From contig OZ316899.1 in NCBI GenBank assembly GCA_973895155.1, positions 11,407,675-11,471,674 on the forward strand: 64,000 bases of DNA, in the 5' to 3' direction. Every line of letters begins with the position of its first letter. Position 1 is the stretch's first letter. The notes under the pieces were generated by a model. It did not search any database. It saw nothing but the letters and a program-made list of their open reading frames with translations, and had not been told where the DNA came from. This document shows positions 15,002 to 54,634 of the stretch, piece by piece. Position numbers and translations under genes: made by a program. The stretch is from Marsupella aquatica. Lineage: Eukaryota; Plantae; Marchantiophyta.

Positions 15002-16145
15002 TAGTATGTTGAACTTACATGCATGTAAATCTTACATTGAATTAATGAGATTCATGATGATTTATATATATATATATATTGATGATTGTAATGAGATTAA
15101 TGTTAATGAGATTGCATTGATGTTGTATGATAGAATCAATATGTACAATCTGATATTGGGGTCATATTACGAGCTATGCGACAACACATTGTTGAGGCCA
15201 TGGTGGCCAACCATGGGCATGATGGAGGGATGCAGGAGGATGATGTACAACATGAGGGTGATAATCCTACTCAAGCACATCTGGATGAGGAGAGGGCCAT
15301 GGATGAGCTCATGGACAAATTTTATGATGATGATGTTGATATTGGTATGGAGGATATGGGTACAACTAATGACAACACCACTCATCCAGGACCTTCTAGG
15401 GGGGGACAGAACAAGGATTGGGAGGAGGCTCAACGTCATGCTTGTACTCGCATATTTGAGGGTAGCACCTTATCTCGGCTCTCCGCAATAATGTTGTTGC
15501 TGAATGTGCAGCAAAGACATGGGGCCAGCAACCTACTTTTGGATGATGTTTTTCGTACCTTGCATGATCATATTTTGCCACCAGGCAATACCATGCCAAC
15601 CTCTTGGAAGGAGGCAAAACAAGTGTTGAAGTCCATTGGTCTCAAGTATGTAGTGATACATGCATGTGTGAATGATTGCATTCTTTTTAGGGGGGAGCAT
15701 GAGAATGCAACTGCATGTCCTAAGTGTGAGAAGCCACGCTACCGTGATGACATGTTGATAGGGAAGGTGCCTCCAAAGGTTATGCGATACTTTCCTCTCA
15801 TCCCCCGATTGCGACATCAGTACCGTTGTGCAGAGTTAGCTGAGTACATGGTATGGCACTCAAAGAATCATTCTGATATGGCTACGAACTCTAGTGCCAT
15901 GCGGATGATGGTTGACTCTCCTGCCAATCGATTTGTTGAGGGCAGATGGGGGGAGTTCACCACTGAACCACGACATGTTCGACTTGGCTTGGCAGCTGAT
16001 GGTATCAGCCCTTTTGCATTGGTGGGTAAAGCAAAACCATATTCAGTATGGCCAGTAGTTTTGACTAACTACAATATCCCTCCATGGATGGCCATGAAGA
16101 AAGGTCATTTACTGCTCTCCATGATCATCCCAGGTCCTAAGCAAG

Positions 16146-19100
16146 TGTGGCACGGTTCCCAAGTCCTCTAACACCGAGAACTACCCTCAACCGATCATAA
16201 ACCACTTGGTTATGTCGGTCCTCTTTCCTTACGGCAGCTATTTAGCTTGGAAACGCGATACTCTCCTTGGGTCCACACTTACCGGACCGATTCTTTCACT
16301 GGGCTTGTGAATTGTGCACAACTGAGACACCTAATTCCTCTTTAACTTCTTCAGGTATATTTGTATTCTGCCCCCGGAATGTACCTCTACGGCTTAATTT
16401 CTTAAGCCGGCTGAAGGTCTTTTTCAGACTGACTCAACCCACACTTCACCGACTAACACTCTCAATCCTCACTGTTCTCTCAGAGTTTGATTTGGGCAGT
16501 CTCCAATCAAGGCAATGCGATTGTATTTTGCTCAACAGTTCACCCTATCTGACTTTAATCGATCAAGCAACAGATATCATAACACTCAACTTCTTGGATG
16601 GCAAGAATCTGCGAACTATGCAACGAAGCCAACTCAATTCAAACAATTGCTCAGAAATCCAAGGGAACTGGTGGTTTACTGATACCCTGCGGTCTAGATT
16701 TAGCCGAGAGCTTCCTGTGTTTACAACAATACAGATTAACACTAAAGCCTTGACTAAGAAAAAGCCCCTGAAACCATGCTGCCCAGGTTTTTATCCTTGC
16801 AGCGATTTCAAAAACAACAACAGAGATCCTAACCACCACACATGGCCTTCCACCGCGATAATCCAAAAAAAAACTATCACCTAAAAACTTGAATAGCCCG
16901 GAACCCTGTGTGAACCGAGCATCTACTACTATCTAAGCCGACAAGGCGCTACTTGCCCTATCCCATCCTACAACGGCCGCGCCCTTCTGGCCCAAGCCCT
17001 TCTCCTTCCGCCACGTCCTCCTTCCAACCGATGACTGGCCCTCCTTAATTGTCAGATGACCGGGGGTAAGTCTGAATCTTCCGACTCTGCACCTTCTCCT
17101 GCCATCGGCCCCGGCCCGACCCCTTCGGCTTCTGTTTTGCCGGCCCCGGCATCGGTCTCGGCATCGGCATCTGCATCTGCATCCGCATCCTCCTGGGAAA
17201 CGGCTTGGAGAGCCTTTGCCTTAACTTCCTCAATCCAAGCCTTTTCCCTGATGCGCTCGGTCTCGATAACCCACGGTTTCATGTTCTGTGTGTCCATAGA
17301 AGCAGTACCATCGTCTAAACCTGTTACCACAGCTCCAAGTTGATCCGCAGTACTTACCTCTACCACCGCTGCCTTCAGGGCCACAGTACCACAAATGTGA
17401 GCAGCCATGCTCTCGACTTCCTCTGGAGTGGCTTTAAGGGTTTTAACTTTATTATCGCCTGGCCCCATGAACGTCTTTGCTAAGTCTGCCACCAACTGCA
17501 TGGCTTTGCCCCCAGTCACACTTGACAACAGAGAGCTTGGCTTCGGCTTCGGCTTCACTATATTTCCGCCTACCATACTACTGTCGGGAAGCCTTTCAGT
17601 TGGTGACCCATATCCCGCTTCGGCATACTTCTTCAATTTCTGCGTTTGATTGTCGGCACGCCTCTGCAGCCCGATCATCTTATCCTTGGCATCCTCCAAT
17701 TCTTGAGATACGTCTTCAACTTCATCGTTAAACCGTAGTATCTCGGCCTTGGCCGTCTTCAACTCCTCATTTAAGATCTGCACGATCTCCAACTCTTGCT
17801 TAGCTACGGTTGCTTTCAAGGAGTCGTTGATACCTTCCAGTTTTGTGACCTCGTTCGTCCATGCCTGCTTTGTCCTGGTTAGCTCCTCCTGAAGCTCCTT
17901 GCGTATCTGTTGAACCCGGTTTAGGTGATCATTGGCCGCCGTGCACATGGCGTCATCATGCTTTTCACGCATGGTCTCCAACCGGTCGAGTAACTTATCA
18001 TACTTCCTTTGGGCTTCTACCAAGGCCTTTTCGCTCTGGGTGGCCTGCTCCTTAGCCGTCTTTCTGAGCCTCTCAACTTGGCGATTTAAACCCTGTACCT
18101 CTACTTTTGAATCGGCTAACTCCAGCTCTATCTTTGTCAACTTTTCCTTGATCTGCTGGTTATCCAATTGGTAGTTTTCAATTGGTTGTTTGCCACATCC
18201 AATTCCTGCTGCCTAGCCAAGAGATCCTACTGAGTTGGTTGAGAAGACTTCATCTTAGCAACTTTGGCCTCCATGGAGCAAAGCCGAGCAATTACTTCCT
18301 CCTTCAATCGCTCCAATGTCATTGCCTCCTCCAGTCTCGTCTGATCAGCCATTTCTTTTCTAAGAAATGGCCCGGATTCCAACTCGTTGCCGAAGATTTC
18401 TAAGGCTAAGAGTCCACACATGTCTCCATACTCCTTAGCCTGATTTCTTGCATAGTTTGACCTCCCAGGTGATACTGGCATCTGCCATCGAGGTCGTCTC
18501 TCCCAAGCTTCAGCCCGTAATTGGTCAAAGTTAGTGAGAGGTTCGGCTTGCCTCTCACTAAGCCGTCTTATTCCTTCTGGCCACTCACCTCCTGGTAGCT
18601 GGCATCCGTGTTCTGCATTCCGGGCCCCCCACTCCTTAATCTTCTCATGTAGCCCGGCTTCAGCTTCCTTCATCTTGTCGAATTCCAATGGCGTCACATC
18701 TGGTGGAGGAGATTCTGGCATTTTCTGGTCCTCCGGTTTGCCATAGAAGACCGCGGGAAGTCTTCTACAAAACCTTCCCATCGTTCTAACTCCTGGGACC
18801 GGCCTCTCCCCATGATTGACATAGTCGTCGTCATAATCATCCACATTGACCTGACTACCTAACATGCCGGCCTCTCCTCCAAAGCCCCCAATCTCCTCTT
18901 CTGAAAATTGTTGGGCTGCAACTGGTTGACCTTCCACCACAGATTCGTTCACTTGGGCTCTGTTAGAAGCTTTTACAACCGGCCTCTCCTAGCCTTGGCT
19001 TACCTCCTCGTCTATCTTCGAATCCATTCGCTCGTCATATTTCTTTCTCTCTTCGGCAGTCATCTTCCTCTCGACCAACTGGATGCCTGCATATGGATTA

Positions 19101-23720: not shown

Positions 23721-26700
23721 AAACCGCCAAAAATGTACTAGTGTCTATTCCTGAACCTCCTCTAGTGCCCTTGCCTACAGGGGAAGTACCGGGGCAAACA
23801 TCTAACTTTGGGCATACCGGCACAACAGCGGCATGTGATAGCCAAGCCAGGACACGCTTCCCATGCCGATCACCTGTTGTTCCTCCTTCAAGATCTTGTT
23901 AAGTTGGGTGAGGAGGTACCCGTTGTAGTCCCGGCTTGGGTCTGGCCTCTCTGCCAGGTAGACCTGTGCCTTGCCAATCTTTGGCCTTGGCAAGTTGCAA
24001 TGCATGGTTACCCGCAAAAAATTGATCACCTCTCCGATGTGCGGGTTGGTGCAGGTGTTCGAAAGAAGCCATTCTTTGTTGATGACCCTGGGAACGACCG
24101 AAACTCCTTGTCTAGCAAGGTCTTCCTGGTATCTACTTTGGTCTTATTGCCCATTGGCAAGCCAAACGCTTTGGCAATCACCCGGGGAGTGAGATAGAAT
24201 CCTTCCCATACACCCTTGTGGAATTGGTCTCGGGCTCCCATGATCCCACAAATTCTAATAAGTCTGAATCTGGCACCTCCGGCTTCAGCCATGGTAATTT
24301 CACGAAGCCTTCCAAGCCAGATCCGACCATGAAGCCCTAGTACTTCCAAGTCTGCATAGCCGTAAAGCATGCATCCTCTTCACGTGCAAAGTGTAATTGC
24401 ACTTCCTCGGGGAGGGTTGCCGCCCAGCCTTTCTAGGTGTCATCCCTTGTTGGAACGACATTGATGGGGTCAACCTCCTCTTCTTTGGCTTCTTCCTGCC
24501 TCCTGCTCCCTTGCTGGGCTGGCTTCCTTGGTGCCGCTGACCTCGTTCTCTTTGCAGGGGTGGTCTCTTCATGTTGTTCGCTTTCCTCTTCATAGCTGCT
24601 GCCGTGGATGTTTTTTTGAGGACGGTTGCCTTTGTCCACCCCTCCGTGCTACCCTTCAACTCCCAGTGTATGTTGTTGCAGTTGTTGATGGCTTCCTGGA
24701 TGCCGACTATTCTGTTCTCGCAAAGCTAAAGGTCGTCTAGCTCGTCGCCAGTAGGTGTCCATAGGAATTCAGCCGTGATGAGTTCTCCTCCTAAGAAGGC
24801 AGACTTCTGCAGCTCCCATAGTCGAGCGAGCTCCTGCCGTTCTTGAGCTGCTCTTTCTGATTCTTTGTCCTCGTAGGTCCCAATGTACTTACTTGCCCGT
24901 TCTAACAGGCATCCCCAAAAATGAGCAGCTTGATTGACGTTGCTCATACCCTTCTTGAGTTGATAGTCGGTATCTGCTCCCACCCCAAGTGCTTGCCTAA
25001 GTAGCTGATAGTAGTTGGCCTCCCGTAGTTGTCTACTTAGTTTGTGCTTGCAAATGAGCCATCATTCTTTGCGACCGGTCCTTACCCCCCCCCTTGCCCG
25101 GTCCTCCTTCCCGTTGGTTACCCATAGCCGCCAACACTTAGCGCACCCTAACCCTAATTGTGTTCCCTCCCCCGACGTCCTTACTTCGGCCTCGGCTCAG
25201 GTTCCATAGTCACCCTCAATTGTTTATATTTTCCATGTTTTTGTTACTATACTAATGTGTTTCTAGGGTACACTCCTGATTTTACCATTTAAACTAGCCT
25301 AGTGATTCCTGGCTAGGCATCACAACCGGCGACGGCTAGTGACCGGTGTAAACGGCCCAATGTAATCAATGCCCCATTTTTCAAATGGTGCAAGCGGAAG
25401 TACGGAGGTGAGAGGGTGGTTGTGTGACTTCCTTGGTGCGCCGGCCCTTTGGCACAAATCACACCCCTTAATAAAGCGTTGTACATCCCGGTGTAACGTG
25501 GGCCACCAATATCCCAAATCCAGGATCTTTTGGGCAGTGGTGATGGCCGCAAAATGGGCCCCCGTGTCCTCTTTGTGTAAGACCCGCATCACGATGAGTG
25601 TTTCCTTGTATTTGAGGCAGCGCCGTAGCTTCCCGTTAACTCCTTCCTTATGCAAGTGGCCTTGTATCATCATGTACGGCCCGGCCTTGCGTAAAAACAC
25701 TGTTGCAGCCTCCTGATTAATCCCATTGGGTATCCTCCTTGTCAAGAGAAGTGTAATGAGTGGTCCGTACGAGGTGGGCGTGCCCTGTACTACATGGAAC
25801 AACTCCTCATCCAGGAAGGCATCGTTGATAGGCTGATCGACGGGTATTCCATCCAATCATGAAAAGAAATTTGCGTTGAGGTGTGCCTTTCCTGGCCAAA
25901 CCCAAACTTTGTAATTAAACTCTTGCAAGAGCAAAACCCATCTGGCTACCCGTCTTGTGACATTTGCTTTGTTTACCATGTACTTCAGGCTATCATGATC
26001 CGTATGGAAAATAACTTTGTATCCAAGCAGATAGTGTCGGAATTTGTTACACGAATAGATAATTCCGAGAGCCTCTCGATCCGTAGGTGTGACGCCAATG
26101 ACATGGTCCTTATTCTATAATCTGATTAACTAGGCTGTTGTATGCAAGGAGTAGCTATTGATATTGCATAACAATTAGCAAGTTGGCAAGAATAAGGGCA
26201 ATCATGGTGTTAAGAGTAGGGATAAAGGTATTTCAGCTTGAAGACTGCACAACCAAGGCAGACACAGTTGAGGTAGTCACTGTCAAGGCCACAAAGGAGA
26301 AACCGGGGAAGAGAGGATTCAGGTCTTCAGGCATACCATCTTCTTGACAAGCAAGATGGAGCATGGAGGCTCTTCAAGATGCCGGTACGGAGGTAGGCGT
26401 GGTAATTCAAGGAAGCGAGTCTCCATAGCTGAATATGAAGTTGTGGGGTATGGTGATTGTTCTCAGGATGAAATCTAAATGTCTTGGGTGTGTAGCTTCA
26501 TTTTGTTAGTTAGGTTAGTGGTTCATAGTCTAGTCTTAGAATGTTAGGGAAATAAAAGGCTATATCGCAGGTGGTCGGTGACCATATCTCATTCAATACG
26601 TCACCAAATCCGGATCTGTAAAGAGCATTGGAAAGATCTGGTCAAGACGAGTAAAATCTATATAAAACACTTGGAAAATAGAAGTGTATTAAGAAAGATA

Positions 26701-27095: not shown

Positions 27096-27988
27096 AGTAG
27101 TGAGTACCCTCTCTCAGTTGCGAGGGCATAACTCTCTGTGTATTTGACCAAATTGGCTATAATTGACCTCTTTGGAAAGAGGAGCTCAAGCCGCTTCCAA
27201 CGCTGCTATCTACACAGCAGATGGTTGAATAGAGAAATCGTGAGAGGAGGCGCAAGCTCGCAAAAACTATGGAGGAGGGCCAAATCCGAAGTACATACTA
27301 GCCAATTCGAGATAGAATAAAGCTGCAAGTTAGGGTTTGGTAGTTAGAATAGTGGTGGCTTTGTTAGAGCTGGGATGGGACTCCAGCAGCGTAGCATCCA
27401 CCCATTTGGGCTCAATGTGAGAGTATATAGAGCAGCCCCCCGGTAGAGGCAAGACCGGGAGGGGGACTTCAGTTGTGTGATCTCACGTAGACTGAGCAGC
27501 AGGGAGGAGCTCTGTGCAAGGAAGGCTAGGCTTGGAAGCTGTGTGTTGGGGTGAGCTTGGTTGTGCTATACTCAGGGAGTGATCAACCACGCTTCACAAC
27601 AACAGTTGGCCAGGTTTGCAAGTTGGATTGTGGCTCTTTCTAGTAGGCAACACAACTGGGTTCTTTTCCCCCGATACAAAGCCTTGGTGATAGGTGATGT
27701 GTTGGTGATTGTAAAATGTGGGGAGGATTTCAATGTGATTTGCGGTGAGCACATTAGGGAGGTTGAGATACTGATTGAGGGGCAGCAGGAGAAGCATTTC
27801 TAGTTTAGTCTGGCAAGGCTACGTGATCCATGGGGAGTCTTGGCCTTTGTCTGGTAGAGAGCACTAAGGGATTTATGGCCAGAGCTGAGCTGGCAGGGCA
27901 AGTGTGAGGCTGGGCCTCATTGTAGTCTCGCCGTTAGGCCTGGTACTAGCTTTTAAGTCGAGTCAACTATGCATGCGTAACTTACCAT

Positions 27989-28339
27989 TGTCATGCCGAG
28001 GGACAATGCCTCTTGTGCACATCGGCATGTCCCTCGCATGCCTGCTAGGTATGTAGTTAGGGCTAGTGTACTACTTGAGTTAGTGTCATGTTCTTGTAGC
28101 GAGTCTGGGCCGTTCTTGAAGCAAAGGTGTTTGTTAGTGTGATGCCTGGACCCGGTCCTACTTAGGGCATGTTTTTCTTTGCCGTTTTTCTTGAATTGCT
28201 GTTGACAGAGCTCAAATAGTGCTCGTCGGTTCCGTTCACGGGATTCACACAGTGATTCATTAGATGCTCCCGGCCGATCTTGGCATCCCGCCGGTTTTCG
28301 ATTCAATTTCAGTACGATTGTTTCTCTTACGCCTTTTAT
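27989..28339 (+). repeat. Terminal repeat A1
   Basis: Direct repeat of 37392-37748. Confidence 0.92.
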
Positions 28340-28351
28340 TCAAGAAGAACT
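28340..28351 (+). other. Putative self-priming primer-binding site
   Basis: ATTCAAGAAGAACT (28338-28351) is the exact reverse complement of AGTTCTTCTTGAAT in repeat A2 (37593-37606). No TGG-type tRNA PBS is present here. Confidence 0.6.
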
Positions 28352-31300
28352 CGTCGAGATAGTGGTGAGGGGAAGAGGATTGCTTGTGACGATTTTGACA
28401 ATTTTTGGTGAAGCCATTGCAATTTCTTTGACGAACATCGGAGTGACGAGTTAAAAGTTATGGGTTTATTGTGGTGTTATGTGTATACTTAAGTGTATAC
28501 ACATAACAAGGGGCCCCAATTTTTTTCCCAGCCGCAACCTTCTTTGTGACCTACATCGGCGACTTGCTGCCGACTGCACAGGCCGTTGCGCCCTCACTCG
28601 CGTTTTTAAGACCCTTTGGGAGTTTGGGGCCCCTTTTTCGTTAGTTTTTATGGCCATTTCCCGGCCATGGCTGTCGCGCGACCACCACCGGACTGCCTCG
28701 GCCATTGCGCGCGACTACTTCCCAACTGCATAGGGCCGCACGCCCCTTTTCTTTATGCCTTTCTTACTCTTTTGCCTCGTTGCCTCACTATTCCTTCTTT
28801 TTGCTTCCTGTCGTGGCCAAGCATAAGCGAGAGAGGATGGAGGACACGAGGCCCTATGGCAAATTAAGAGGAGGGGAGGGGAGTACACATTAAAGTAGGG
28901 GGAGTCTCCTACAGGGCACAAAGCAGCATTAAAGCAGGGGGAGACGGAACCAAGGCAGGAGCGCAAGGAGAGGGCACGAGGCCCTATGAAGATTTAAAGA
29001 GGGAGGGGGAGTTAACATCGACCCCCTTCAGGAGTCCTTCTGTAGGGCACGGAGCCCACTGTCAACATTGAAGAGGGGGGGAGTACACTTGACTCCTCTC
29101 ACGAGAGTCTTTTGCCAGGGCACGAGGCCCAAATTGCATTGAAGGAGAGGAGGGGGGGAGTTTGTAGCCCCTTTTTGGGAGCACATAAGGTGGGGCACGA
29201 AGCCCTATGGAGGGCTCATGCCATTAAGAGGGCCCGGTTTCTTTTGCCCCACCTCGCGATGGCTTTTCTCCTCTTTCCGGCCACCTGCGAGCCTGCCTCG
29301 GCTAATTTCCCCTTTTTTGGCCTTTCTCGCTTTTTTGCCGCGCGACGATCGACCTGCTGCCAGTTCCTGGGTCCACATCGGGCCGATGTGTATACACTTA
29401 AGGGGGGCCCTTTCACGTGTTGTAGGGCCCATTTCTTTCCGTTTGCTCCTACCTTGTTCTCGATTATGTGCATAGGGCACCATGCCGGCCGGTCCTTCCG
29501 TGTTTGGGTCCACATAGGGGCCCGAGGTATACATTTTAGGGCCCTCTTTCACATTTTAGGGGCCCGTTTTCCTCGGATTCTTTTGCGGCCGCTGACATCA
29601 GGTCATCTGCATACGGCTGCAGGTCCGGTGTATACACATCTGACGGTCAATTTGGCATATACATCAACAAACGCACAGGGGGCTAAATTTGCATTTTTAA
29701 GGGTACTTTTTCTCCGACGGTTTTTCAACGGTGATAGTTTTTCTGTGTGTTTACACATTTGCACCTTGTTGGTACATTTGGGATTGCAACACAGTATCTC
29801 AGCAGACGAGCCGGGAGGTAGCAGCACATCGTCACCAACACCCAAGTACCATTTACGGAGTGATCCACGACCATTGGTGCCAATTTCATTGGAGTCTCGG
29901 CAATTTTGACAACGTCCACAGATACCAGCGGCACCCACACCACGCAATCCTTCTGCTCAATTTGGCGGTCACTTCACCACTACTCCAAAGCCTGCTATCA
30001 CTTCATTGCCATTTACCCCTTCTGCATCCATGGTTGTTCCTGCTTCACCGACATACAACATGGACGCCAGCCACTCATCTGGCCGCATTGAACGCTTCAG
30101 CGGGCGGCCAGGCACTGTTTCTTTGCGTGAGTTCAAATCCACTTTCTACACTGTCATTTACGAATTGGAGTTGAAGTATGGCAGCAATTTCACAAATGCT
30201 TTTGCATTTAAACAGCTAGCCAGGTATGTGCACCACGAGGCTTTGGATGTGTATGAGCAGCACTCTCAACGGCTGCTTGTGTCACACAATTGCCTAACCC
30301 TGTCTATGCCACTGCAATTGCGGTTGCCTCACAACTGGCATTACAGAATGCCATTGTAGCCCATGCTGCTGCTCCTGCCACTTCCCCTCCTACTCCAGTT
30401 CCCACCACTGCACCAGTTACTTCCACTGTCTTGGCACAGGCTACATCAGGTATTTCTCCCACCATTGATTCCCCTGCCTTTGCTGATCCAGTGGCTGAGT
30501 TTTCCCAGGTTCTTGAATTGGAATTCCCAATCAAGAGTGCTGACAAAATCATGCAGTTGGCCACCTTTGTGAGGCAGCGTGATGAAACATTGAAGATGAT
30601 GTATTGCCAGCTTCTCAAGCGGAAGGAGGACACCCAGAGCATCACTGACCTGGAGGCTGCTCATCACTATCTTCATGCATTGGAGGGCACACCAGCTCTC
30701 CATTTGCAAGTGTTGCAGCAAGTATTCTTAGAGTTTGGATACAGCTACACACTGCTCAATGTCTATGACACTACTGAGAAACTTGAGTTGGCCCATGCAC
30801 ATTATGAGGCCAGTATTGCGCGTCCATCGCGATCCAGGTACCAGGCTGCTGCCCCTACACTGGCCACTCCTTCCCATGTGCCACAATATGGTTCCAAGAC
30901 CAAGCCAGCACATGCTGCTTTCATGCTGCCATTTTGCAACTATTGTGGTAACCCTAATCACAAGGCTAATGAATGTGATATTGTTGCTGAGGACCTGTCT
31001 TGTGATTTTTGCGGGAAAGTGGGCCACTTGGAGGCAGTTTGTTTTGCCAAATTCCCAGAGAGGAAGCAACTACGTTAGCAGGCCACTCATCCTGCTCTTG
31101 TTTCCACTCCCCCACCAGCTAGGAGGGCTCCTACTGCATCAGTTGCTCCTCCTTCTAGTGGCAAAGCACCCGACGCTAACAAATTGCCCAAGCAGCAACA
31201 GAAGCAACTAGCTCAGAAGGAGGCTCACAACGCACAAGCAACTCAACTCCAGTCTCTGACTCATGAGGTTGAGTCCCTACGTGCCCAACTTGCCAACATC

Positions 31301-32911
31301 AAAGGCAAGTCAACTGCCTCTGTTGGTCCTTCTCAACCGGCTGGTCACGTGCAACCCATCCCTGGCCCAGGCACCACTGATAGTTCAGCACCTCTACCCC
31401 GCTCTTTTTATGGCTTGCCATTTGATGCTCATATGGGTGAGTGTGTGCTATCCTCTGCTACACAGCCTGGCCTTACCGCAGAATTTTCAGATTCATTATG
31501 CCCTTCCTATTTTGCTTACCATCAGGCCAGTGTTGCCTCCCGTACTGCTCCCACATGCCGCATTGTACAGGCTGATGGTCTTGCTGCCGGTCCTATAACT
31601 AGAGCCAGGGGAGCTCGGGCTGTCATGCCCCAATCGTTTCAATCGCTCACACTTGCTGAAGAGCACACCTTGTTGGCGAGGGGGGAGGGAGCTGCAGCTA
31701 CATCCATTCCACCACCAGGTGCTGCTGACATTTCACAGGGAGTTGTTTCTCCTGAGCTGCTTGAGCATTTCACCTCCGGTATGGCACAAAGGATTCTTAC
31801 AACTCCACTTTTCAGTTGCCATGATTTACAACTGGATGCTAGAGCTGTCATGAGAGCGCTAGAGGGCTCACTGCATTCTTCATCAGCCCTTGTGCCACCG
31901 GTTTTGGAGGTCCAATCTCATGTACATGCTGGATCTTCTTCTTCTCCATTACATGCTTCCACTGGTTTGGCTATCCCAGTACCAATTTCTTGTGGTAGAG
32001 ATGACAGTATTGCTGCAGATTGTGTGACCAGAGCTACACTTGATTCTGGTCATGCTGCTCCATCTTTCCTGGCTATGCTGTTGAGTGAGAAGACCGTGGA
32101 CACTAACTCCCTTCACAAGGTACCTCATCATTTGCCAAAAGTGGTGCCTAGTGACAGGACTTTAGTTTCCACCACCATTGCCATTGTTGACAACAGGAAT
32201 TAAGTGGTCAAGTTGGAGGGTCACACTCCTCAGGTGGTCATGCTAGACACAGGCGCTCAACCAGAGATATTGGGCATTCAGTTTGCCAAGAAGATGAGAC
32301 TGCTGATTGATCATTTACAACAATCCAGGTGGCACATTCGGACTGCTAGTGGCACTGTGGAGGATGTGCTGGGTGAGAGTTCTACTTTACTCACTCTCAC
32401 TTTTAATGGAGGTACAGATCAGGAATTGCATTTCCCAGTCAGATATTTGGTTACCAATGCCACTACGTATGATGTGCTCATTGGCCAGGAGGCTTTGTTC
32501 CCACCAGGTTTTACCATTGACAACTGGCATGAGCATGCGTACTACAGAGTTGATTGGCATACGGATGGCTCACACTTGGGCTACATTCCACTTGATTTGC
32601 ATGGTGCCCATACACCTATGGCTCACCACTGTGTGTTGAAAGCAGTGCACACAGCTACCTATGTCAACCACCCATTGCAGGATTGGATTGAGGAGGATGA
32701 TGATGAGGTGGCTACTGCACATGCTGCTGCACGTATAGCAACACTTTCCAGCAACGTGGATCATCAACCAGAGGTGGTACAACGGCTCCAAGCAGCCCAT
32801 GGACCTTTGGTGGCTGCATTGCGCAAATTTGAGGACCTTGGGCAGCACAATGGCCAACCAATAGCCCCAATCTTGAGCGCACCAGTTACATGGACTCCTC
32901 CTTCAAATGGC

Positions 32912-33850
32912 CTTACATTGCTTGAGATTTTTGGTGGCATTTCTATAGGCCTAGAAGCTCTCCTACAGTCTGGCATGGTGGTGAAGCAGTACATCTATGT
33001 GGATATTGATCCAGGTGCAAGGCAAGTGGTTGAATCTCGTCTGCTGGAATTTTCAAAGTGATTTCCCCAGCAGTTTCCACACAGTGCATGGAAGTCTGCA
33101 TTTTCTTTCTTCCCTCCAGATATCCAGCTTGTCTAGCACCGGCACTTAACCCTTCTTGGCTCCCTTGATTTGATCATAGCTGGTTGGGAATGCCAAGGGT
33201 TTTTAGCTGCTGGTCACGGTGCTGGACTGCATGATTCTCGTTATGGCCTTTTCACAACATTGGTTCAGGTTTTCACCTGGGCTCAATCTCTTTAATTACC
33301 CTGCTATTGGTTATATCATTGAGAATACTCCATCTCAATTTGACCAGCGTCCACAGGTCAAAGAGGATTCAGTGTGGTCCAGCACTACTTGGGACCACCC
33401 CTTCTCATTGATGCAGTGCACTGTGGTTCTTATGCACATCGTCTTCGTAAGTTTTGGACTAACCTTGCACCACCTTCCTTGCTGGAGTTAGCTCTTCACC
33501 ACACATCCAGGGACACTAACCTCACAGTGGACCAGATTTTGGATCCTGAAAATTCTTGCCAACCAGTTACACGGCAAGAGCCAGCACCTTGGTATCCAGC
33601 CAATACCATTGGACAGCCCCGTGCTGCTTGGCCTACATTTGTATCATTTCCAGGTGCACATGCCTTTCAGGGTGATGGTCTTGGCCTGGTTTATCAACAT
33701 TCTATCGGTACTTGGGATGAACCTAGTCCTGAGGAGAGAGAACGGGCTATGGGCTTCCAATTTGGTACTACAGGCCACACCCAAATCACCAGGCTGGTCA
33801 GGAATGCTTTACTTGGCAGGGTAATGGATCTTAATGCTCTCACTTGGCTT
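32912..33850 (+). other. C5 cytosine methyltransferase domain, DNMT3-like, within pol
   Basis: Motifs in canonical order: I LLEIFGGISIG; IV DLIIAGWECQGF (33164-33200); VI YIIENT; VIII SYAHRLRKFWTNL; IX EERERAMGF; X RNALLGRVM. Confidence 0.9.
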
Positions 33851-36800
33851 CTGGTCACTTGCATCCTTTTTCAGATGTACATTCATCCAGCATCTGGAGT
33901 TCCAGCTCTACCACTCCATGGTGCTGCTACATGGCATCCAGACCAGGTGCACTTACCTCTATTCAACACTCACCGCTGTAGTCCAAGTGTTGGGGGGGAG
34001 GAGGTCCCTTGTAACGTGGCTGACAATATTTCTGAGTTTCATGGTGTGGACCAACTCAGATCAGCAGGTACAACAGGCCTTGGAGAGGCCTCATCACCTT
34101 ATCAACAACATGCTAGCAGCTTGGACAGTGGAGAGGCTAGCACTTCTGGCTCTTCAAGCACGAGTACATCAGGTCCTATTCCTAGTGTTGCCAACTACAC
34201 ATTCATCATGGGCAACCACCTGAGTAAAAGACAGAAGGACCAGCTGCTGAATTTGCTCCTCAAGCATGAGAACGTGTTTGCTTTCTCTATGAAGGACTTG
34301 GGTAAGTGCAAGACTATGCAGTTCTCCATTGAGTTGGCTAATGAAACACCTATCTTCAGGCGGAGACACCGTTTGAGTAAGCATGAGTGGCAGCTGGTGG
34401 ATGAGAGGTGCCAAGAGCTCTATGAAGCTGCTCTTATTCAGCCATCTACATCAGATTTTGCAGCAGCTACAGTGATGCCAGCAAAGAAGGATTCCAGTGG
34501 ATTATGGACAGAGAAGCGCATGTGTGGGGACTACAGGCCACTGAACCTGGTCACACCCCAGGATAGGTACCCCATGCCACGGCCAGAGGAGCTATTTGAC
34601 AGCATTGGAGACTCAGACATCTTCACTCTTGTGGATCTAAGGCAAGGCTTTAACCAGATTTTGCTGCTTGCAAAGGACCGCAAGAAAACAGCTTTCCATG
34701 GTAGTAACCAACTATGGGAGTGGTTAGTGATGCCATTTGGCTTGAAGAATGCGCCCATATTCTTTCAAAGAGTCATGGACCAGGTTCTTCAAGGTGCTGA
34801 GTTTCTAAAATGCTACATTGATGATGTGTTGGTCCACAACAAAGGATTTGACCAGCATCTACTTGACCTTGAGGAGCTATTCATGAGGCTTAAGAAGGTG
34901 AACCTAAAGATACACCCCAAGAAGTGTGAATATGCTGTCAAATTAGTAGTATACCTTGGGCACCGCATTCTTCCAAATGGAACCATGGCTCACTAGGCCA
35001 AGGTGGTATCCATCTTGGAAATGCCCACTCCTACCGATGTTCACACTTTGAGGAGTTTTATTGGGTTGTGCAATTACTACCGGATCTACATCAAAGATTT
35101 CAGCACCATTGCACACCCATTGTATGCTTTGTTGAAAAAGAATGTGACTTGGACATTGAGTACAGATGCTGAGGCAGCATTTGCCACTTTGAAGGAGAAG
35201 CTCTTAGAATACCCGGTGCTGAGAAGACCTGATTTCAGCAAGGTCTTTGTGCTACACACAGATTAGAGTGCCCTTGGGATTGGTGCCATTTTTGGCCAGC
35301 ATGATGAGGAAGGTAAAGAGTACGTCATTGCCTATGCATCCAGGAGCAACAATCAGGCAGAGAGTCATTATTCTTTGTATGAGGGTGAATGCCTTGCTGT
35401 TGTGTGGGCTATCATACATTACAGGCCTACCTCTATGGGACCAGGTTTGTCCTCTACACCGACCACCAGCCCTTGAAGTGGTTGATGACCAACGACAAAC
35501 TTACTGGCAAGCTTGCTCGTTGGGCGCTCATACTCCAGGAGTATGATTTTGAGGTAATTCATAGGCCTGGTGTGACACATCAAAATGCTGACACTATGTC
35601 CCGCAGCCCTTTGATTGCCTTTGATGATTCCTTAGATGCACGGCAGGATTTTGACCAGGTTTCTATCCTGTCTACATTTCATGCATCTACCTATCTTGCT
35701 TTGCTGCCATGCTACGTTGTTGACCAACCTGTGGTGGACATATGGGAGGACAGCGACACTCTGAGATTTTTGCAGCATGGGGAGTACCCCATACATGTTA
35801 CTGCAACCCAGAGAGACCAAATTCAGCAAAGGTCCAAGCATTACTTGTGGAAGGGAGATCACCTCGTGCGTTGCTTGCCAGACAGGGAAGTGGTGGTTCC
35901 ACCCATTCATGAGAGGGTTGGCCTTATTCGTAAGGTACATTCTGAGCTTGGTCATTTTGGCGTTAAGAGGACTTACAGCCTCTTGGTCCCTCATTATCAT
36001 TGGAGAGGCATGCATGGCCAGGTTTGAGATGTTATTGCCCGGTGTGAACAGTGTGATAGGGTGAGGACTTCTTTCACATCTCGGCAACCCACACTTCATC
36101 CTATTTAGGGCATGTTTTATTGTTGGTCATGTGATTTGGCTGGAGAATTACCCCTCACGTCTTGGGGTAATCTCTACATTTATATCATGATAGAGCATTT
36201 CTCCAAGTGGATAGAACTTGTGGCATTGCCAGATAAGACCTCCCGTAGCACCAGCCAGGCATTCTTGCAACAAGTTCTCAGCCACTTTGGAGCTTGTGCA
36301 GAATGTCTTGCTGACCAGGGCTCAGAGTTTAGAGGAGAGTTCCAGGAGCTGCTTGATCAGGCCCTCATTGATCATCGCCGGACATCACGAGATCACCCAC
36401 AGGCAGATGGCTTGGCAGAGCGCATGGTTCAGACATGCAAGAAGGGCCTCCGAAAGATCTGCCTCACCAAAAACAAGGAGGATTGGGACCTGGCCTTACC
36501 CTACATTGCCATGGATGTCTAGACATGCATCATTGTCTAACTTTTCTCCCTACTTCTTGTTGTTTGGTCATCACCCAGTTCCACCTTTTGCTATTGCTGC
36601 TCACATGCTTCAGGTGGTGGACTTGGATTCAGCTGTGACTTGGTCTGCTGTGATCTCTAAGAGGGCTGCCCTATTCAGGAGGGTTATGCCCATGGCCATG
36701 GAGAATTTGGCCATTGCACAACACAAGGACACATTGCGTTATGCACACACACGAGGGAGCACTTTTCAGTCCAAGGTCAAGAAGTTTGATGTGGAAGATT

Positions 36801-37018
36801 TTGTGTACTTGCAGCGGCAAGCTAACGACACCCTGGACACCTCTACCACTCGTACTATTCTTAGGGTTAAAGCTATTTGACCGTCTGGAGTGCTAGAGTT
36901 ACAAGGGGCAGATGGGCGCACAATTGCTGACAATGCCAAGAATTGCGCCCCTTGTCATCTGCCTAACCTGGATCCCACCATTGTGACTTCTACCTGGATT
37001 CTACCTGTGGACTACCCT

Positions 37019-37153
37019 TGCAAAGTGTGTTTGCAAATTGATGATGCTGACCAGATGCTGCTGTGTGATAATTGCAATGGAGGATACCATCGTTTTTGCC
37101 TTCGGCCTGAACTTACCCAGGTGCCAGAAGGGTTATGGTTTTGCCCTTCCTGT
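37019..37153 (+). other. PHD finger (C4HC3) at the integrase C-terminus
   Basis: CKVC-x9-LLCDNCNGGYHRFCLRPELTQVPEGLWFCPSC. Confidence 0.93.
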
Positions 37154-37203
37154 GCTCCACATGCTACCTGACTTTTCTTCAGCCCTCCTTTTGGCTGTGG
37201 TCT

Positions 37204-37924
37204 GGGGGGGGGGGTACAAAGGTTTACACCTCCACTACGTACATACCACCTCAGTTGCTTTTTCTTGGCACTTGTGAATGTGATTGGACTTTTTCTAAGG
37301 ATGTTGGTTGCTAGCAGCTTGCACATATGCATTGCCGATGACTTGTATGTTTTCGATACACCATGGCTACGATACTATATGTCACGACAGTTTTCATGCT
37401 GAGGGACAGTGCCTCTTGTGCACATCGGCATGTCCCTCGCATGCCCGCTAGGTATGTAGTTAGGGCTAGTGTACTACTTGAGTTAGTGTCATGTTCTTGT
37501 AGCGAGTCTGGGCCATTCTTGAAGCAAAGGTGTTTGTTAGTGTGATGCCTGGACATGGTCCTACTTAGGGCATGTTTTTCTTTGCCATTTTTAGTTCTTC
37601 TTGAATCGCTATTGACAAAGCTCAGACAGTGCTCGTCGGTTCCTACACGGGATTCACACAGTGATTCGTTAGATGCTCCCGGCCGATCTTGGCATCCCGC
37701 TAGTTTTCAATTTGATTTCAGTACGATTGTTTCTCTTACGCCTTTTATATACAGAGGTTTACACCTCCACTACGTACATACCACCTCAGTTGCTTTTTCT
37801 TGACACTTGTGAATGTGATTGGACTTTTTCTAAGGATGTTGGTTGCTAGCAGCTTGCACATATGCATTGCCAATGACTTGTATGTTTTTGATACACTATG
37901 GCTACGATACTATATGTCACGACA
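37204..37924 (+). repeat. Polypurine tract (G11, 37204-37214) followed by repeats B1 (37215-37389), A2 (37392-37748) and B2 (37750-37924)
   Basis: B1 and B2 are near-identical 175-bp copies; A2 matches A1. Confidence 0.92.
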
Positions 37925-38931
37925 CCATTCTGAAATGGAGGTGTGAGTGTCGCGCCCCTAACCCGGGCCTTAAATCCGGTTTAGTTCCATGCGGCGACTT
38001 TGACCACCAGTAGGGGTGAGGGTTTGGGCAAGGAGGTGTGTAGTGGCCTTGATTGACCCTAAGTTGGGCTAAGGCAATATACTTACTGGTATAACACTCA
38101 CGCAACTCGGACTAGTCATAGGTATGTTTGTTTTCCACCGCTGGAATATCCCCACAGTTAGTGACTCGGACTAACTCCCGGCTTGGGGCTTTCAAGCCAT
38201 CGATGCGACAGAACCTTGTGACATGCAATGGGTGGCAATCCCTACCATTAGTCCGCACCCGGTACGTCCCTTGAAATAGCGCCTTTGCCCATACAAAGCA
38301 TACACACAACACCAGTTACTCGCAAAAACATTAGAGGGAAAAGACTATATTTACTCAATGAAGAATTAGTTTACATAGTTGACTCGACTTCTAAGGGGGT
38401 CAGCAGGCCTAACGGCAGTCAATGCCCAGTCTCTACGAGGCCCCACCCCGCACCTGCCCAACAAGCTTGACTCTGGCTCTCACTCCTTGGTGCGCTCTGA
38501 CCCTGCTTAGGCCGGGACTCCCCGTGCCTCGCCTTTCCTTACGCTGAGATAACTAAGCCTTCTCCCCCTTCCCACAGCGAAAGGGGAAGCCTAAATACTA
38601 CATTCGCGGAAAGGAACCGGGGGATACTACCTTCCGGGGTAATGCCTACTGACTAACTACCCTCTGACTAGCCGGCCGCACTCCTCTGACCGGTTGACCG
38701 TTGACGACAAGGGCGCTGACCGGAATGGCATTAGCTAAGTCTACTGACCAAAATCTAGTTGATGGTCTCTATCCTACGTTGGCTGATCCTAACTGATCTG
38801 CTCCTAATTCTTCCTATTGTGCCACTAATTGGCGCCTAGTGACAGCTATTCTGTCGTTACGCCTAACCAGAAGATGCCGCTGACTCAACCACCTTGCACG
38901 GCGCCTGCTTCCTCACTTTGCTAACCACCCC

Positions 38932-41230
38932 TTACGTGCGAGCCGTGGTCGGACCAGGGTTTGTCCCCCTGTCAGGGCAAGACCTCGAGCCACCTTGATC
39001 AGAGGTGGGCCCAGGTCTTCCCCGCTGGAGGACGAGTAGGGTAATGCGGTCCTGCAAGGCCTTGTTGTCCTGCACCGCCTCCTCCGCCTCATTTGCAGCT
39101 TCGTCGACCTCTGTTTGGAGCCGTGCTACCTCCAGGTTGAGCTGGTCGATGGAGTCACGATGGGTCTGGTCCTGCGCCAACAATTTATCCCGTTCGGCGG
39201 AGAGACTAGCTACCTGCTGAGCTGTTTGTAGGAATTGGTTGTTGAGGTCGGTCAGGTTGGTAACCCGGGCTGAGGATTCCGATCGCAACTAAAGCACGGT
39301 ATCGTCCATCTTCTTGAGATCCGCTCGCGCCTTGCTTAACTCCTAGGTTAGTCCGTCCTGCTGTTCAACGGTGCGGACTAACTCCTCACGGCGGGTAGTG
39401 GCCTCCTCCTCGAGGTGTTCTACTAGCATTTGGAGGCACCCGATCTCATTCCCCTTTGCCATGAGTTCTTCTTCCAAGCAGCTTACGATCTGTGGTTGGT
39501 GCTCTAACATGAAGAAGGCTGGTTGAAAGTACGCTGAGACTTGTTGTTCGATGTACGTTGCCAGCTCCGTTGATAGAGTCTGACTAATCTTCTGGACCAG
39601 GTCGTAGGCCATGGTCCCTGGGGCTACTTGGTAGTCCTCCATCCTCTCGGGTACCGGTGGTTCCTCGGGCGGGGCAACGAGCTCCTCCGTAGTCTGCGCT
39701 GGGGAGGGGAAGGTTTCTTCAGGTGGTGGAGGGATTGGAGGTGGTTGTATTGGGGGTAGCGGAGGCTCGAGAGAAGGGGGCGGCGGAATTTCAACCCAGG
39801 GAGGTGACGGAGTATTAGTCGGGGCTTCCGGCTCGGGGTTTGCCCGAGGCGAGGTAGTCTGCTCGTTCAGGGTAGCCTCCTCCATAGCGGGGTGACATTA
39901 GTCGGGGCTGAGGTGGCCATATTCTTTCCCCTGGCCTCCCGCCGTGCCTTGTACCAGGCGAGGATGATGGCGATATGACTTCCCAGGTAAGTCTTCCCCC
40001 TATAGCCATACCTCCCTGAGCCCGCTTAAGCTCTCCCGAGAACCTTCGATAAAAGAATTGGGCCCAGTTTCGCCGTTTGTACTGTTCCACCTGCACGATC
40101 GTGCAGAGGGAGATCCCGGATCGTGGCTCAATCATGTGTAGGGTAGTCCGTATGAAGTTAAGCCGCTCCATGCAGATTAAGTTGGTGCACGACCCCTGCT
40201 TGTATCCGTTGTCCACCTTACCTTTGGGTTTGAAGTGCCGAGGTGTATACTCCTTATCCCGAATTTGGAGTTCAACCGGCATTGGCCCGATTGGCAGGCA
40301 GAAGATCTGTGCTAACCGATGTTCCGTGAGTGATAAGGTCTGCCCTAAAACCTTAGTGGTCGATGCGTCGGTGTTGAAATTGGAGATGAACTCACAAATC
40401 TCCTTTGGCCCGGCCGCGCACGGTCTCCATAGCAAGTGAGCGAACTGATCCAACTGATGCTCCTTGAGATAGTCCGCGTGGTCGAGTTTCTTGATCGCAA
40501 TCCAGACTACCTCGGGAACACGGATTACCTGTAATAAGTTAGACTTGGGATTATCCGGGGGCCGTCGGGTCTGGTTGGCCGGGGGGTTTGTCGGGGCAGG
40601 TGCAGGAGCGGCTTTGGTTCGCATTGTCGATTCGAGGGCCGGCGTCGTTCTTACCCGCTTACAAGAACGCTGCTCGAGATGCGGACTAACTCGCTCAAAA
40701 CCCAAAGAATACTCGGTGTTGTTCACGGGACAGACTTGGGACCGGTTTGGAGGTACGCCGATGGTCATCGGCTGAGGCGCTGGTGGTGTCGGTGTAGCCA
40801 TATCCCAGTTAAAGGCGTTGGAGCTTTCCCCGGGGAACATAAGATTACACACCGCTTCCTGTTGTCTGCTGATGTCTTCTTGGCGCTTTTCGGCTGCGAT
40901 CTGCTGGTCTAGGTACCCCGGGATCTTGTCAAACTTTGCTTTTTGCCTGTGCTACCTTGGCCACCAACTTTGCGTATCTTCTTTCGTAAGCGGCTTTCTC
41001 GGGACAAGAGTACCAGTAAGTCTCGGTGAACTTAGCACCTACCTCGCCAAACAAGGTCCAGAATCCCAAGGCTGTAAGGGTCATACTAACCTTTGTAGTC
41101 TGGTTCGTCGAGTCCGCGTTCCCGCTGTTCGGTGCGCTTACTGGTGGAGGCCTTCCTCACCCCGACTAAATCTTGCCACAACCCGCTCTTATCCCTCAAT
41201 GATCTCCTCGTAAAGGTTAGCTTGATTCGA
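38932..41230 (-). pseudogene. Disrupted copy of the LTR-A ORF
   Basis: ORF pieces 39815-40852, 39343-39885 and 38932-39288 match the protein at 54635-57082. Confidence 0.88.
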
Positions 41231-41250
41231 GCAAGAAGGCGAGAGAATGG

Positions 41251-44200
41251 TGTGATGCCTAGCCAGGAATCACTCGGCCAGTTAAGTGGGTAAAGCAGGA
41301 GTGCACCCTAGAAACACCTTAGTATAGGGACAAAACAAGGAAAATATAAACAATTAGGGGCGACTATGGAACCCGGGCCGAGGCCGGAGGTAAGGACGCT
41401 GGGGGTGAAAACAAGATTAGGGTTAGGGCGCGCTAAGCGTCGGCGGCTAGGAAGGATCAACGGGAGGAAGGACCGGAAGAGGAGAGGGGTAAGGAGCGCT
41501 TGCAGGGAATGGTGGCTCATTTGCGAGCACGAACTAGGCAGACGACTACGGGAGGCCAACTACTGTCAGCTGCTTAGGCAAGCACTCGGGGAGAGAGTAG
41601 ATACCGACGATCGACCTAAGGAGGGTATGAGCAACGTCAATCAAGCGGTACATTTCTGGGGATGCCTGTTCGAACGGGCAACTGAGTACATCAAGACTTA
41701 CGAGGACGAAGAATCAGAAAGGGCAGCTCGAGAACGGCAGGAGCTCGCTCGATTCTGGGAGCTATAGAAGACGGCTTTCTTAGGAGGCAAACTCATCAAG
41801 GCCGAGTTCTTGTGGACTCCTACTTCCAATCAGCTCGACAATCTTTTGTTTTGCGAAGACAGAGTCGTTGGCATCCGAGAAGCCATCAAACGCTGCAACA
41901 ACATACACTGGGAGTTGAAGGGTAGCACGGAGGGGTGGACAAAGGCAACCGTGCTAGGAGAGACATCCACAGGAGCCAAAATGAAGAGGAAGGGAGCCGT
42001 CAACAATGAAGCCACCCCGGCAAAAAGAACGAGGTCGGCGGCACCAAAGAAGCCAGCCGAGCAGCAGAGCAGGAGGCAAGGAGAAGCCAAAGAGGAGGAC
42101 GATCCCATCAATGCCATTCCAACCAGGGATGACACCTGGAAAGGCTGGGCGGCAACCCTACCAGAGGAGGTGCAACTACATTTTGCACGGGAGGAGGATG
42201 CATGCTTTACGGCCATGCAGACCAAGAAGTACCAAGGCTTCATGGCCGGATCCGGCTTAGAGGCCTTTGTAAGATTACCATGGCTGAAGCCGGAGGTGCC
42301 GGATTCAGACCTATTAGAATTCGTGGGGTCATGGGAACCCGAGACCAATTCCACGAGGATATATGGGAAGGATTTCTATCTTACTCCCAAGGTGATTGCC
42401 GAAGTGTTTGGCTTGCCGATAGGCAATAAGACCAAAGTTGATACCAGGAAGACCTTGCCTGACAAGGAGTTCCAGTCGTTCCCCGGGCCATCAACGAAGA
42501 ATGGCTTCTTCCGGAACACCTGCACCAACCCGCACATAGGAGAGATGATCGACTTCTTGCGGGTGACCATGCATTGTAACTTGCCGAGGGCAGAGATCGG
42601 CAAGGCACAGGTCTATCTGGCAGAGAGGCTAGACCCAAGCCGGGACTACAATGGGTACCTCCTCAACCAATTGAAGAAGATCTTAAAGGAGGAGCAGCAG
42701 GTAATCGGCCTGGGGAGCGTGTCGCGGCTTGGCTATCACATGCCGCTGTTGTGCCGGTATGCCAGAGGTCAGACCTTTGCCCCAGTACTTCCCCTGTAGG
42801 TAAGGGCACCCGAGGAAGCTCCAGCACCGAGGCCGGTAGCAGAGAAGCCTCAACCACCTATTAGCCCTACGATTGAGCAGGTGTTTAGGCCAAGGAAGGA
42901 AGACTTGCCGATGCAGCAACCAAGCATGCAGAATCTGCTGAAAATGCTGGAGAAGGAAAAGACGGCACTGGCACCAGCTTCGGCACCAGCACCAATACAG
43001 GACACTGCCCCAGAGGTCAACCTAAGCAGACTTAGAAGGGAAAACCCCTTTACCGGAAATAAGGAGAGAATCAGGCCAGAATCCAAGTCGGGTGTTCGAA
43101 TGTACGTGGGAGTCTCAAGCTCTGAATCTGAGGCAGAATTGCCTGAAGCTCCTACCGGCGAAGAGGAGAGGGAGAAGCCGGAAGTCCAAGAGGTGGAGGA
43201 GGCAATGGAGGACTGCAGCCATGATAACTCCGGCTATGGGTCGGACCATCACGTTCCAGGAGTAAGGACCTGTGGCCGGTTTATCCCCACACTTCCAAGG
43301 GTAGTTCGAGGGGACCCCAACCAGTAGAGTAGCCCCGAGTCTCCCCCACCAGATGTTGCTCCCCCGAGCTTTGACGACATAAAGCAGACGGCACAGGAAT
43401 TCCAGGAGCGACTTAGGGAAGCAGAAAAGGCAGCCCTGGCTAGGGAAAAGGATTTGCCAGGAGGAGATTGGCCGGAGGACATCAGGCGGCTAGCCGAAAA
43501 AGGAAGCAAACCTCTAGCCACGATTGAAGAGATCCGCAAGACGGCTTGGGAGCAGAGGCCGCGATGGGCGATGCCGATCACTTCTACTTACTCCACCTAC
43601 GCTAAAAATAGAGCCATGGAGTATGGTGAGATATGTGGGGAACTTGCGCTTGGCATCTTTGGGGAGGAGTTGGAGGTAGGACCCTTTTTCCATAGGGAGC
43701 AGTTGGAGAAGCACCAATTAGAAGAAGCGGTGGCTTTAGAGAGAAGCAAGAAGGACGAGGTCATCCGACGGCTTAGGAGGATGGAAGCCGAGATTGAAGA
43801 TCTAAGGGCGGCCAAGAAAGCCCAAGATGAACTGCGGATTAAGCGGCATGAGCTGAACATCATGCAGGGGCAGTTGGACACCGCGCAGGCTGATAATCAG
43901 ATTATCAAGGATAAACTGACTCAGACCCAGGGAGAATTGGCCGACGCAATCAAGGACAGGGAGAAATGGAAGAAGGAGCTGAGAGACGTAGAGGAGGCCC
44001 ATATAGCAGTCAACAACCGGGTCACGGCGGAGACTCAGAGAAGGGAGAGGGCGCTGAAGGAAGAGCTCGAGGTCATCCGTAGAGCCCTTGAGCAGAAGGA
44101 GGCCGAGTTAGGGAAATCCTATCAAGGGATTATTGCGCTACAGCAGGAGCTTGCGTCCCTGACGGCCAGCTTCAAGGCCGACCTGCGGGAGAAGGACGCC

Positions 44201-54228: not shown

Positions 54229-54634
54229 TGTGACACGGGTAACGTGTCACTTGATCGAACCCAGGTCGTAGATTAGGACTTATACGGTCATTAGGACCGT
54301 AGCCATAGCGTAGAATAGCACGTATAGCCGTCAAGTTGCCATTATGATTAGATAGGAGTAGGTTAAGATAACCGAATAATTACGAGTTCAGGAAAGGGAT
54401 TATTACGCGCGACCGAGGTACGGTGGCGGCAGCGGAGTAAAAATCAGTTAGAAGAATCACGCTTGGACCGAGACGCCGACTTCAGCTCGTTATCAATGAC
54501 CAAACGGCCTGACCTTCTCACGCTCGGGCTCGTCCGGGCACCCCCATAAGAGAGGAGCCGATGGCACTGCGGGCCATTCGCTCACGTTTACCTTTTTGGA
54601 ATTCACGGACGCTGCCATCCGCTCCCCTTTTTGA

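Follow-up and report, generated by a model that had tools for sequence, protein, structure and literature searches.

A Gypsy retrotransposon with a DNMT3-like methyltransferase in Pol and split terminal repeats: a candidate route of self-priming and end-joined integration

What would a DNMT3-like cytosine methyltransferase do inside the polyprotein of a Gypsy retrotransposon, and how would an element whose terminal repeats are split be copied and inserted by a DDE integrase? Both questions are raised by a decayed 9.9-kb Gypsy copy in the window, which here means the whole stretch of 64,000 nucleotides that was analysed. The element has the order gag-PR-MTase-RT-RH-INT-PHD, with a long 5' region ahead of gag, and is of the KnitGypsy-Dnmt3 kind (Table 1). 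An earlier note, made from the letters alone, had placed C5-methyltransferase (MTase) motifs I, IV, VI, VIII, IX and X between protease and RT, where they are indeed found. Its domain order is right, but it overlooked that the terminal repeats are split, and it did not see the signals for replication. The reading favoured here, held as a whole with middling confidence, is that an element of the KnitGypsy-Dnmt3 kind, likely from a bryophyte, carries an MTase in Pol that likely methylates CG sites of its own cDNA, and that its reverse transcription is likely self-primed and its integration likely proceeds from end-joined cDNA cut open at a palindrome inside it.

Table 1. Parts of the element, with positions counted from the first letter of the window
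Feature	Position	Strand	Remarks
Whole element	27989..37924		decayed Gypsy copy
Target-site duplication, left	27985..27988	+	4 bp (CCAT)
Repeat A1	27989..28339	+	starts TGTCATG (left integrase end); putative promoter and transcription start inside
Self-primer segment in A1	28184..28196	+	13-nt pairing with the PBS including G-U; 7-nt deletion just upstream in the window copy
Putative primer-binding site (PBS)	28340..28351	+	directly 3' of A1; complements a segment inside A
gag, CCHC knuckle and spacer	30030..32200	+	broken: frameshift near 30279, stops
Aspartic protease (LDTGA)	32204..32600	+	Pfam E 2.8e-5, under the curated cut-off
DNMT3-like C5 cytosine methyltransferase domain	32903..33850	+	two stops and a frameshift pair in the window copy
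Motif I, LLEIFGGISIGLEAL	32918-32962		window MTase
Motif IV, GWECQ	33182-33196		window MTase
Motif VI, YIIENT	33312-33329		window MTase, in the shifted frame
Motif VIII, AHRLR	33434-33448		window MTase
Motif IX, ERERAMGF	33734-33757		window MTase
Motif X, LLGRVMD	33809-33829		window MTase
Reverse transcriptase and RNase H	34280..35600	+	RT E 2e-26; stops, one frameshift
Integrase, H2C2 zinc finger and DDE core (CDLAG, ADQG, GLAE)	35900..36520	+
PHD finger, Pol C-terminus	37019..37171	+	Pfam E 1.4e-12
G-run (polypurine tract)	37204..37214	+	abuts B1
Repeat B1	37215..37389	+	CACGACA at end
2-nt spacer, internal CA-NN-TG junction of abutted ends	37390..37391	.
Repeat A2	37392..37748	+	92% to A1; intact 14-nt self-primer segment at 37593-37606
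Repeat B2	37749..37924	+	97% to B1; joined directly to A2; CACGACA end (right integrase end)
Target-site duplication, right	37925..37928	+	4 bp (CCAT)

The domain in Pol was confirmed to be a DNMT3-like C5 methyltransferase. Its motifs run in the canonical, unrearranged order. The Pfam match PF00145 to its N-terminal half is weak (E 0.004), and the ESM Atlas gave generic DNA_methylase clusters only. Among solved structures, DNMT3A is the best match for the MTase domain of a relative, and a profile of ten relatives matches DNMT3A at E 6e-18, DRM2-type enzymes at 6e-10 to 3e-8 and HhaI at 1e-6. For an intact relative, the structure predicted by AlphaFold (pLDDT 70) was compared by Foldseek, and all listed rows are DNMT3A, DNMT3B or DNMT3C (best E 1e-12, TM about 0.55). 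By these sequence and fold scores, which are not a tree, DNMT3 is nearer than DRM or bacterial MTases, and the DNMT3-type resemblance first seen in the motifs is upheld.

The catalytic Cys, the Glu of motif VI and the Arg of motif VIII, as expected of a DNMT3-type C5 MTase, are all present. In motif IV, WE stands in for SP ahead of the catalytic Cys. The form GWECQ had been called unusual, which is true only against canonical Pro-Cys, a dipeptide that the window copy lacks. Within the family it is the commonest form, found in 107 of 202 aligned stretches (chosen by profile, near-copies included); GWPCQ accounts for 43, PC is a minority form, and the Cys is kept in all 202. All 15 listed forms have the EN motif and most rows have the R-x-R motif, at identities of 35-45%. 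The stops and frameshifts already reported for this copy can be located in the MTase as in-frame stops at 33059 and 33134 and a compensating frameshift pair between about 33290 and about 33370. Sister contigs from three public runs (33134 is uncovered in one) differ from the window copy at these places, and the lesions are therefore private to it.

The window element is one of many copies. Short contigs on it number 10,215 and 5,893 in two public runs, as a high-copy family would give. Of 332 metagenome loci related to it, the best 80 were analysed, genome contigs contributed 2 loci, and a protein search matched 484 clusters at 50% identity with E<=1e-30, of which the best 150 were examined. 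Viral contigs held no relative of the element. Locus L082 was discarded as a weak match of 47 aa.

The position of the MTase is constant in all 64 of the 80 loci that reach the protease and in all 66 that reach RT. Protease and MTase share a frame in 52 of the 64 loci with both, and MTase and RT in 49 of 66, decayed copies included. Intact frames also exist: P0210 carries gag-PR-MT-RT in a single ORF (65-84% identity per domain), P0022 is a complete polyprotein of 2358 aa with the order gag-PR-MT-RT-RH-INT-PHD, and P0001, P0008 and P0056 are further single-ORF relatives. L004 has a naturally undamaged MTase domain at 9548-10492. Thus the claim that a DNMT domain is embedded in the polyprotein, and not missing from sister copies or out of frame with pol, is borne out by relatives that keep MTase and Pol together.

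The dN/dS check proposed at the outset points the same way. For the MTase, dN/dS between lineages is 0.06-0.10 in the four window-versus-locus pairs, of five, that allowed dS to be computed (near saturation there, and saturated in most such pairs), and 0.085-0.087 in the pairs L004/L001 and L004/L003. Between close decayed copies it is 0.33-0.45, against 0.28-0.32 for RT. The dN of the MTase is about twofold that of RT (0.22 vs 0.09). Judged from these substitution rates, the domain is under strong purifying selection in the relatives.

Named relatives come from Calypogeia fissa, three Sphagnum species, Closterium, Haematococcus, Scenedesmus and Cymbomonas, those of Calypogeia and Sphagnum being the closest to the window element. 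Because its RT is 85% identical to that of the moss-type P0001 and its decay is CHG-biased (of 19 such changes in the MTase, 11 are at CHG), a bryophyte host is likely. The suggestion that the lineage reaches a plant genome thus agrees with the data, a land-plant host being likely, but it was too narrow: the lineage extends beyond one plant to liverwort, Sphagnum, Closterium and chlorophytes.

Quick trees of RT and MTase both part nine rows with the MTase before RT from 78 rows with the MTase after RNase H (SH-aLRT 99); they carry SH-aLRT support only, the outgroup RT falls inside one group on a long branch, and they are not reliably rooted. Few rows are named, and of these the streptophytes fall on the first side and the chlorophytes on the second. 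Domain position is imperfectly tied to clade, because P0013, P0062 (Haematococcus) and P0180 (Cymbomonas), which have the protease followed by the MTase with no RT detected between, are placed on the second side of the MTase tree. These groupings support a long association of MTase and RT. The window element groups with Closterium and unnamed rows, and no named K. nitens protein is among the matches.

The commonest complete architecture in the distant relatives P0018-P0207 is RT-RH-MT-INT-PHD, seen in 57 of 207 proteins, with Scenedesmus as its one named member. An open frame of this order (2152 aa) also lies on L081, a contig filed in a bacterial MAG, and its eukaryotic Gypsy architecture makes misbinned algal DNA the likely explanation. 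The end of this contig falls exactly at the junction palindrome described below (L081:10352-10362).

Elements of this kind are already known. KnitGypsy-Dnmt3 of Klebsormidium nitens (de Mendoza et al. 2018, PMC5890265), of the charophyte-alga kind to which the earlier note had rightly pointed, is alike in its Gypsy domain set, its Dnmt3-type domain in Pol, its DIRS-like A-coding-B-A-B repeats and purifying selection on the DNMT, as compared by stated features and not by sequence. Its host is an alga, whereas that of the window element is likely a land plant. The available text of that paper treats the capture as confined to the lineage of K. nitens, leaves the split repeats unexplained, and does not give the domain order, PHD finger, target-site duplication (TSD), priming or junction palindrome of the element. 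Later papers, in their available parts, still cite the Gypsy-DNMT3 kind for streptophytes only. No report of such elements in land plants or chlorophytes was found in the openly accessible text of the literature, nor in the accessible portions of 10.1101/2021.11.30.470311, 10.1101/2022.06.16.496473, PMC12344493 and PMC8616336; as far as the accessible portion of 10.1101/2022.06.16.496473 goes, it describes a Chlamydomonas Gypsy with a PHD finger and does not mention an MTase. The range over liverwort, Sphagnum, Closterium and chlorophytes was likewise not found in that accessible text.

Several other systems share single features with the window element, as far as the available text of each source describes them. 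SymbioDIRS-Dnmt3 likewise has Dnmt3 in Pol and A-coding-B-A-B repeats, and exists in two domain orders, but has a DIRS-type RT and a tyrosine recombinase where the window element has a Gypsy RT and a DDE integrase with TSDs (PMC5890265). In Tf1/Sushi and the plant Tcn1, which is present in mosses, the 5' end of the RNA complements the PBS, over 11 nt in Tf1 and over a predicted 12 or so in the window element; those elements have ordinary LTRs and mostly chromodomains, in contrast to split LTRs, a PHD finger and an MTase here (PMC7175516, PMC6317226). By Pfam, the window Pol has the PHD finger in place of a chromodomain. EpiLTRs are also LTR elements with a DNMT and a chromatin reader, but their DNMT is sister to DNMT4, they carry DAM and a chromodomain, and they are stated to be distinct from streptophyte Gypsy-DNMT3 (bioRxiv 10.64898/2026.05.21.726589).

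The element has the Ty3/Gypsy order PR-RT-RH-INT with a DDE integrase, and TG..CA termini within a 4-bp TSD, as in Ty3/Gypsy elements with their 4-5 bp. In place of two complete terminal LTRs, the repeats are split as A ... B-A-B, a layout shared by the window copy and the loci L004, L007, L022, L047, L052 and L059. An origin of B-A-B from tandem copies or nested insertion is rejected, since six other loci have the same layout and the unit lies in its entirety between the TSDs. With both ends readable in 11 independent insertions (window included), the 4-bp TSD is exact in seven, has one mismatch in one and does not match in three.

The two inner joints behave differently. The B1|A2 joint is CA-NN-TG, and its spacer measures exactly 2 nt in the window and in every one of 16 loci (13 of them independent). 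The A2|B2 joint consists of the end of A and the start of B, and 5 of 12 independent cases show deletions or one additional base. Irregular joints thus number 0 of 14 for B1|A2 and 5 of 12 for A2|B2 (independent joints, Fisher p 0.012), though part of the A2|B2 deletions may date from after the insertion, through microhomology or AT slippage. The same CACGACA-GC-TG end is found in L081, which is distant (MTase 37% identical, placed after RNase H).

Within the junction CACGACA-NN-TGTCATG (37383-37398), the spacers GC, AC, GT and AT are all transition variants of GC, and a GC spacer completes the perfect palindrome GACAGCTGTC. The CpG in the end sequence at the junction is retained despite CpG loss elsewhere; as a speculation, it might be a target of the MTase.

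The replication signals lie at the repeat borders. A G-run stands immediately 5' of B1 in 29 of 30 loci. No tRNA-type PBS was seen, there being no TGG after A1 as judged by eye. Instead, the stretch that follows A1 complements a segment inside A, over 14 nt against the A2 of the window and over as much as 15 nt in 9 of 29 loci. The longest such duplex averages 10.5 nt in 29 loci, against 6.0 (maximum 8) in 145 control windows. Between the window and moss-type copies, two compensatory pairs are found in the duplex, and its RNA fold has a z of about -4 in L004 and L022. The primer segment lies 29-32 nt downstream of a TATA box in 22 copies (31 in 18 of them); the window copy itself gave no TATA match. 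Transcription is expected to start at about that distance from a TATA box. None of the 21 independent loci with a 5' A has the mirror form A-B-NN-A-internal-B.

One and the same insertion is present as A-int-B-A-B and as A-int-B in L007 and L049, a pair that suggests recombination between B1 and B2. The short form, A-int-B, occurs in 13 of 30 loci with B1; a 1-LTR circle would yield it too on integration.

A replication route that fits this anatomy can be proposed. Intact relatives encode a single polyprotein, gag-PR-MTase-RT-RH-INT-PHD. Transcription would start inside A, about 31 nt past the TATA box, so that the first 12 nt or so of the RNA could anneal to the site that follows A1 and act as primer of the minus strand, as in Tf1. 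The plus strand would start at the G-run before B1. If the two strands are primed at these places, LTR reverse transcription of the ordinary kind would give a linear cDNA with B-NN-A at both ends, the TG/CA ends for integrase being abutted inside each LTR. Joining of the cDNA ends would then create the A2|B2 joint. The DDE integrase would cut after CA, on both strands, at the palindrome next to the PBS, leaving recessed CA ends with 2-nt overhangs, the normal substrate of integrase. The end product, A-internal-B-NN-A-B with a 4-bp duplication, is the one observed. In the particle, the MTase would be freed by the protease and then methylate the new DNA, and the PHD finger would likely steer insertion.

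There is precedent for the cutting step in foamy virus, whose DDE integrase is reported to open a palindrome of abutted ends; according to the available text of PMC1180852, that palindrome forms at the circle junction, whereas the window element inherits its palindrome as a part of the LTR, and the cut is a proposed one. In the openly accessible text of the literature, the priming and junction anatomy of Gypsy-Dnmt3 elements was not found. A wider claim is that this Gypsy lineage goes back to the divergence of streptophytes from chlorophytes, is still abundant in bryophytes and retains DNMT3 in order to methylate its own cDNA, and that tRNA-free self-priming, cDNA end-joining and an obligatory DDE-integrase cut at a built-in CA-NN-TG palindrome make up an undescribed route. 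This is plausible but somewhat more doubtful than the reading of the element itself.

CpG depletion bears on the role of the MTase. The observed/expected (o/e) CpG ratio is 0.25 in the coding region and 0.54-1.0 in neighbouring blocks. At codon position 3-1 it is 0.16 (21/128.5) against 0.69 (108/157.6) in six other TE ORFs, a comparison of one element with six ORFs of unknown age, one of which is likewise low (0.38, 3 of 7.9 expected). A and the UTR keep their CpG (0.70-0.89 in the window, 0.56-1.10 in four loci). The moss-type loci offer no contrast, as their flanks are poorer still in CpG (0.10-0.29), and locus flanks held no RT of a non-DNMT retroelement that could serve as control. Within the window, a second Gypsy at 58956-63320 (+), with an open gag-pol frame of 1454 aa, no MTase and a CpG o/e of about 1.0, serves as a CpG control. 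Of the 19 C/T-type differences that set the MTase of the window copy apart from its sisters, CG sites account for just 3, so the depletion predates the window copy and is ancestral to the family.

Coding CpG loss fits repeated CG self-methylation, and methylation of the element's own cDNA is the best guess from these base counts. Repeated CG methylation has likewise been argued for SymbioLINE-Dnmt, as the available text of PMC5890265 has it. Host targeting or CpG avoidance could produce the same pattern. Uniform methylation of the cDNA would not predict CpG-rich repeats and 5' UTR, unless selection keeps those CpGs.

How probable are other accounts of the same locus? The symmetric 2-LTR circle predicts the mirror product about half the time, and since that product was never seen, some asymmetry must be added to a circle model. 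It could instead be that the self-priming element forms no free circle, RT jumping from end to end or leaving a nicked, branched intermediate in which only the palindrome on the PBS side is cut. This would account for the absent mirror product and retain the PBS, the G-run, the variable A2|B2 joint and the 2-nt spacer; such an intermediate, however, has left no direct sign, and the deletions and extra G at A2|B2 resemble end joining, so this variant is rather unlikely. Ngaro/PAT elements have the same A1 ... B1 A2 B2 layout but integrate by tyrosine recombinase, according to the available text of PMC9210276 (see also PMC5890265). By analogy with them, the RNA could span the element and the ends be rebuilt from the B1-A2 junction, with the PBS-like site and the G-run idle. 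The asymmetry would then come naturally. Against this, Pfam finds no tyrosine recombinase in the plus-strand ORFs (the longest minus-strand ORF, 164 aa, lay outside the scan), the DDE integrase, TG..CA ends and 4-bp TSD are present, the primer/PBS pair is conserved and, with the G-run, sits exactly at the repeat borders, and A2|B2 is variable; the analogy is very improbable.

The MTase may also not act mainly on cDNA. It could be a DNA-binding or weakly active module, or could act jointly with the PHD finger on the host chromatin where the element inserts; the loss of CpG would then be due to host methylation of the coding region or to avoidance. The WE of motif IV, the undepleted repeats and UTR and the doubled dN are in keeping with this, as is the Klebsormidium Dnmt3 domain, which in the available text of PMC5890265 gave no methylation in yeast, a result that its authors call inconclusive. 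The invariant Cys, the EN and R-x-R motifs and the strong purifying selection count against it, as do the far less CpG-poor neighbouring TEs of the window and, from the same portion of that paper, the de novo CG activity of the related SymbioDIRS-Dnmt3 in yeast. Such a role is unlikely, and methylation of the cDNA is preferred. That a fragment of a host DNMT3 was captured by chance in the window copy alone would suit a copy so broken, but its probability is negligible, and the idea is refuted by the conserved in-frame position of the domain in the loci that reach PR or RT, by a family of at least 484 clusters and by the selection on it.

Other repeats surround the element. At 14057-16171 (+), an ORF with a SET domain (Pfam E 9e-6) lies directly 5' of a CACTA Transposase_21 ORF; the two may belong to a DNA transposon that has a histone methyltransferase on board. 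Inverted and direct copies of another repeat family, 77-94% alike, occur at 37948-41250, 54615-58065, 41282-43177, 23753-25324 and 8985-9318; they have long ORFs without a convincing Pfam match.

For genome annotation, a DNMT3-like gene model from a bryophyte or an alga can be a piece of a transposon, and LTR finders that require two equal terminal repeats would likely miss such elements. With Gypsy-Dnmt3 in liverwort, peat moss, Closterium and chlorophytes, and with intact natural ORFs, bryophytes and green algae become suitable for tests of self-methylation. The question at stake in the end anatomy is whether a retroviral-type integrase uses end-joined or circular DNA as a normal precursor, and a near-palindrome of 16 bp provides a short, defined substrate for this long-argued matter. 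If the proposed route is true, circular or end-joined DNA would be the true precursor of integration in these elements.
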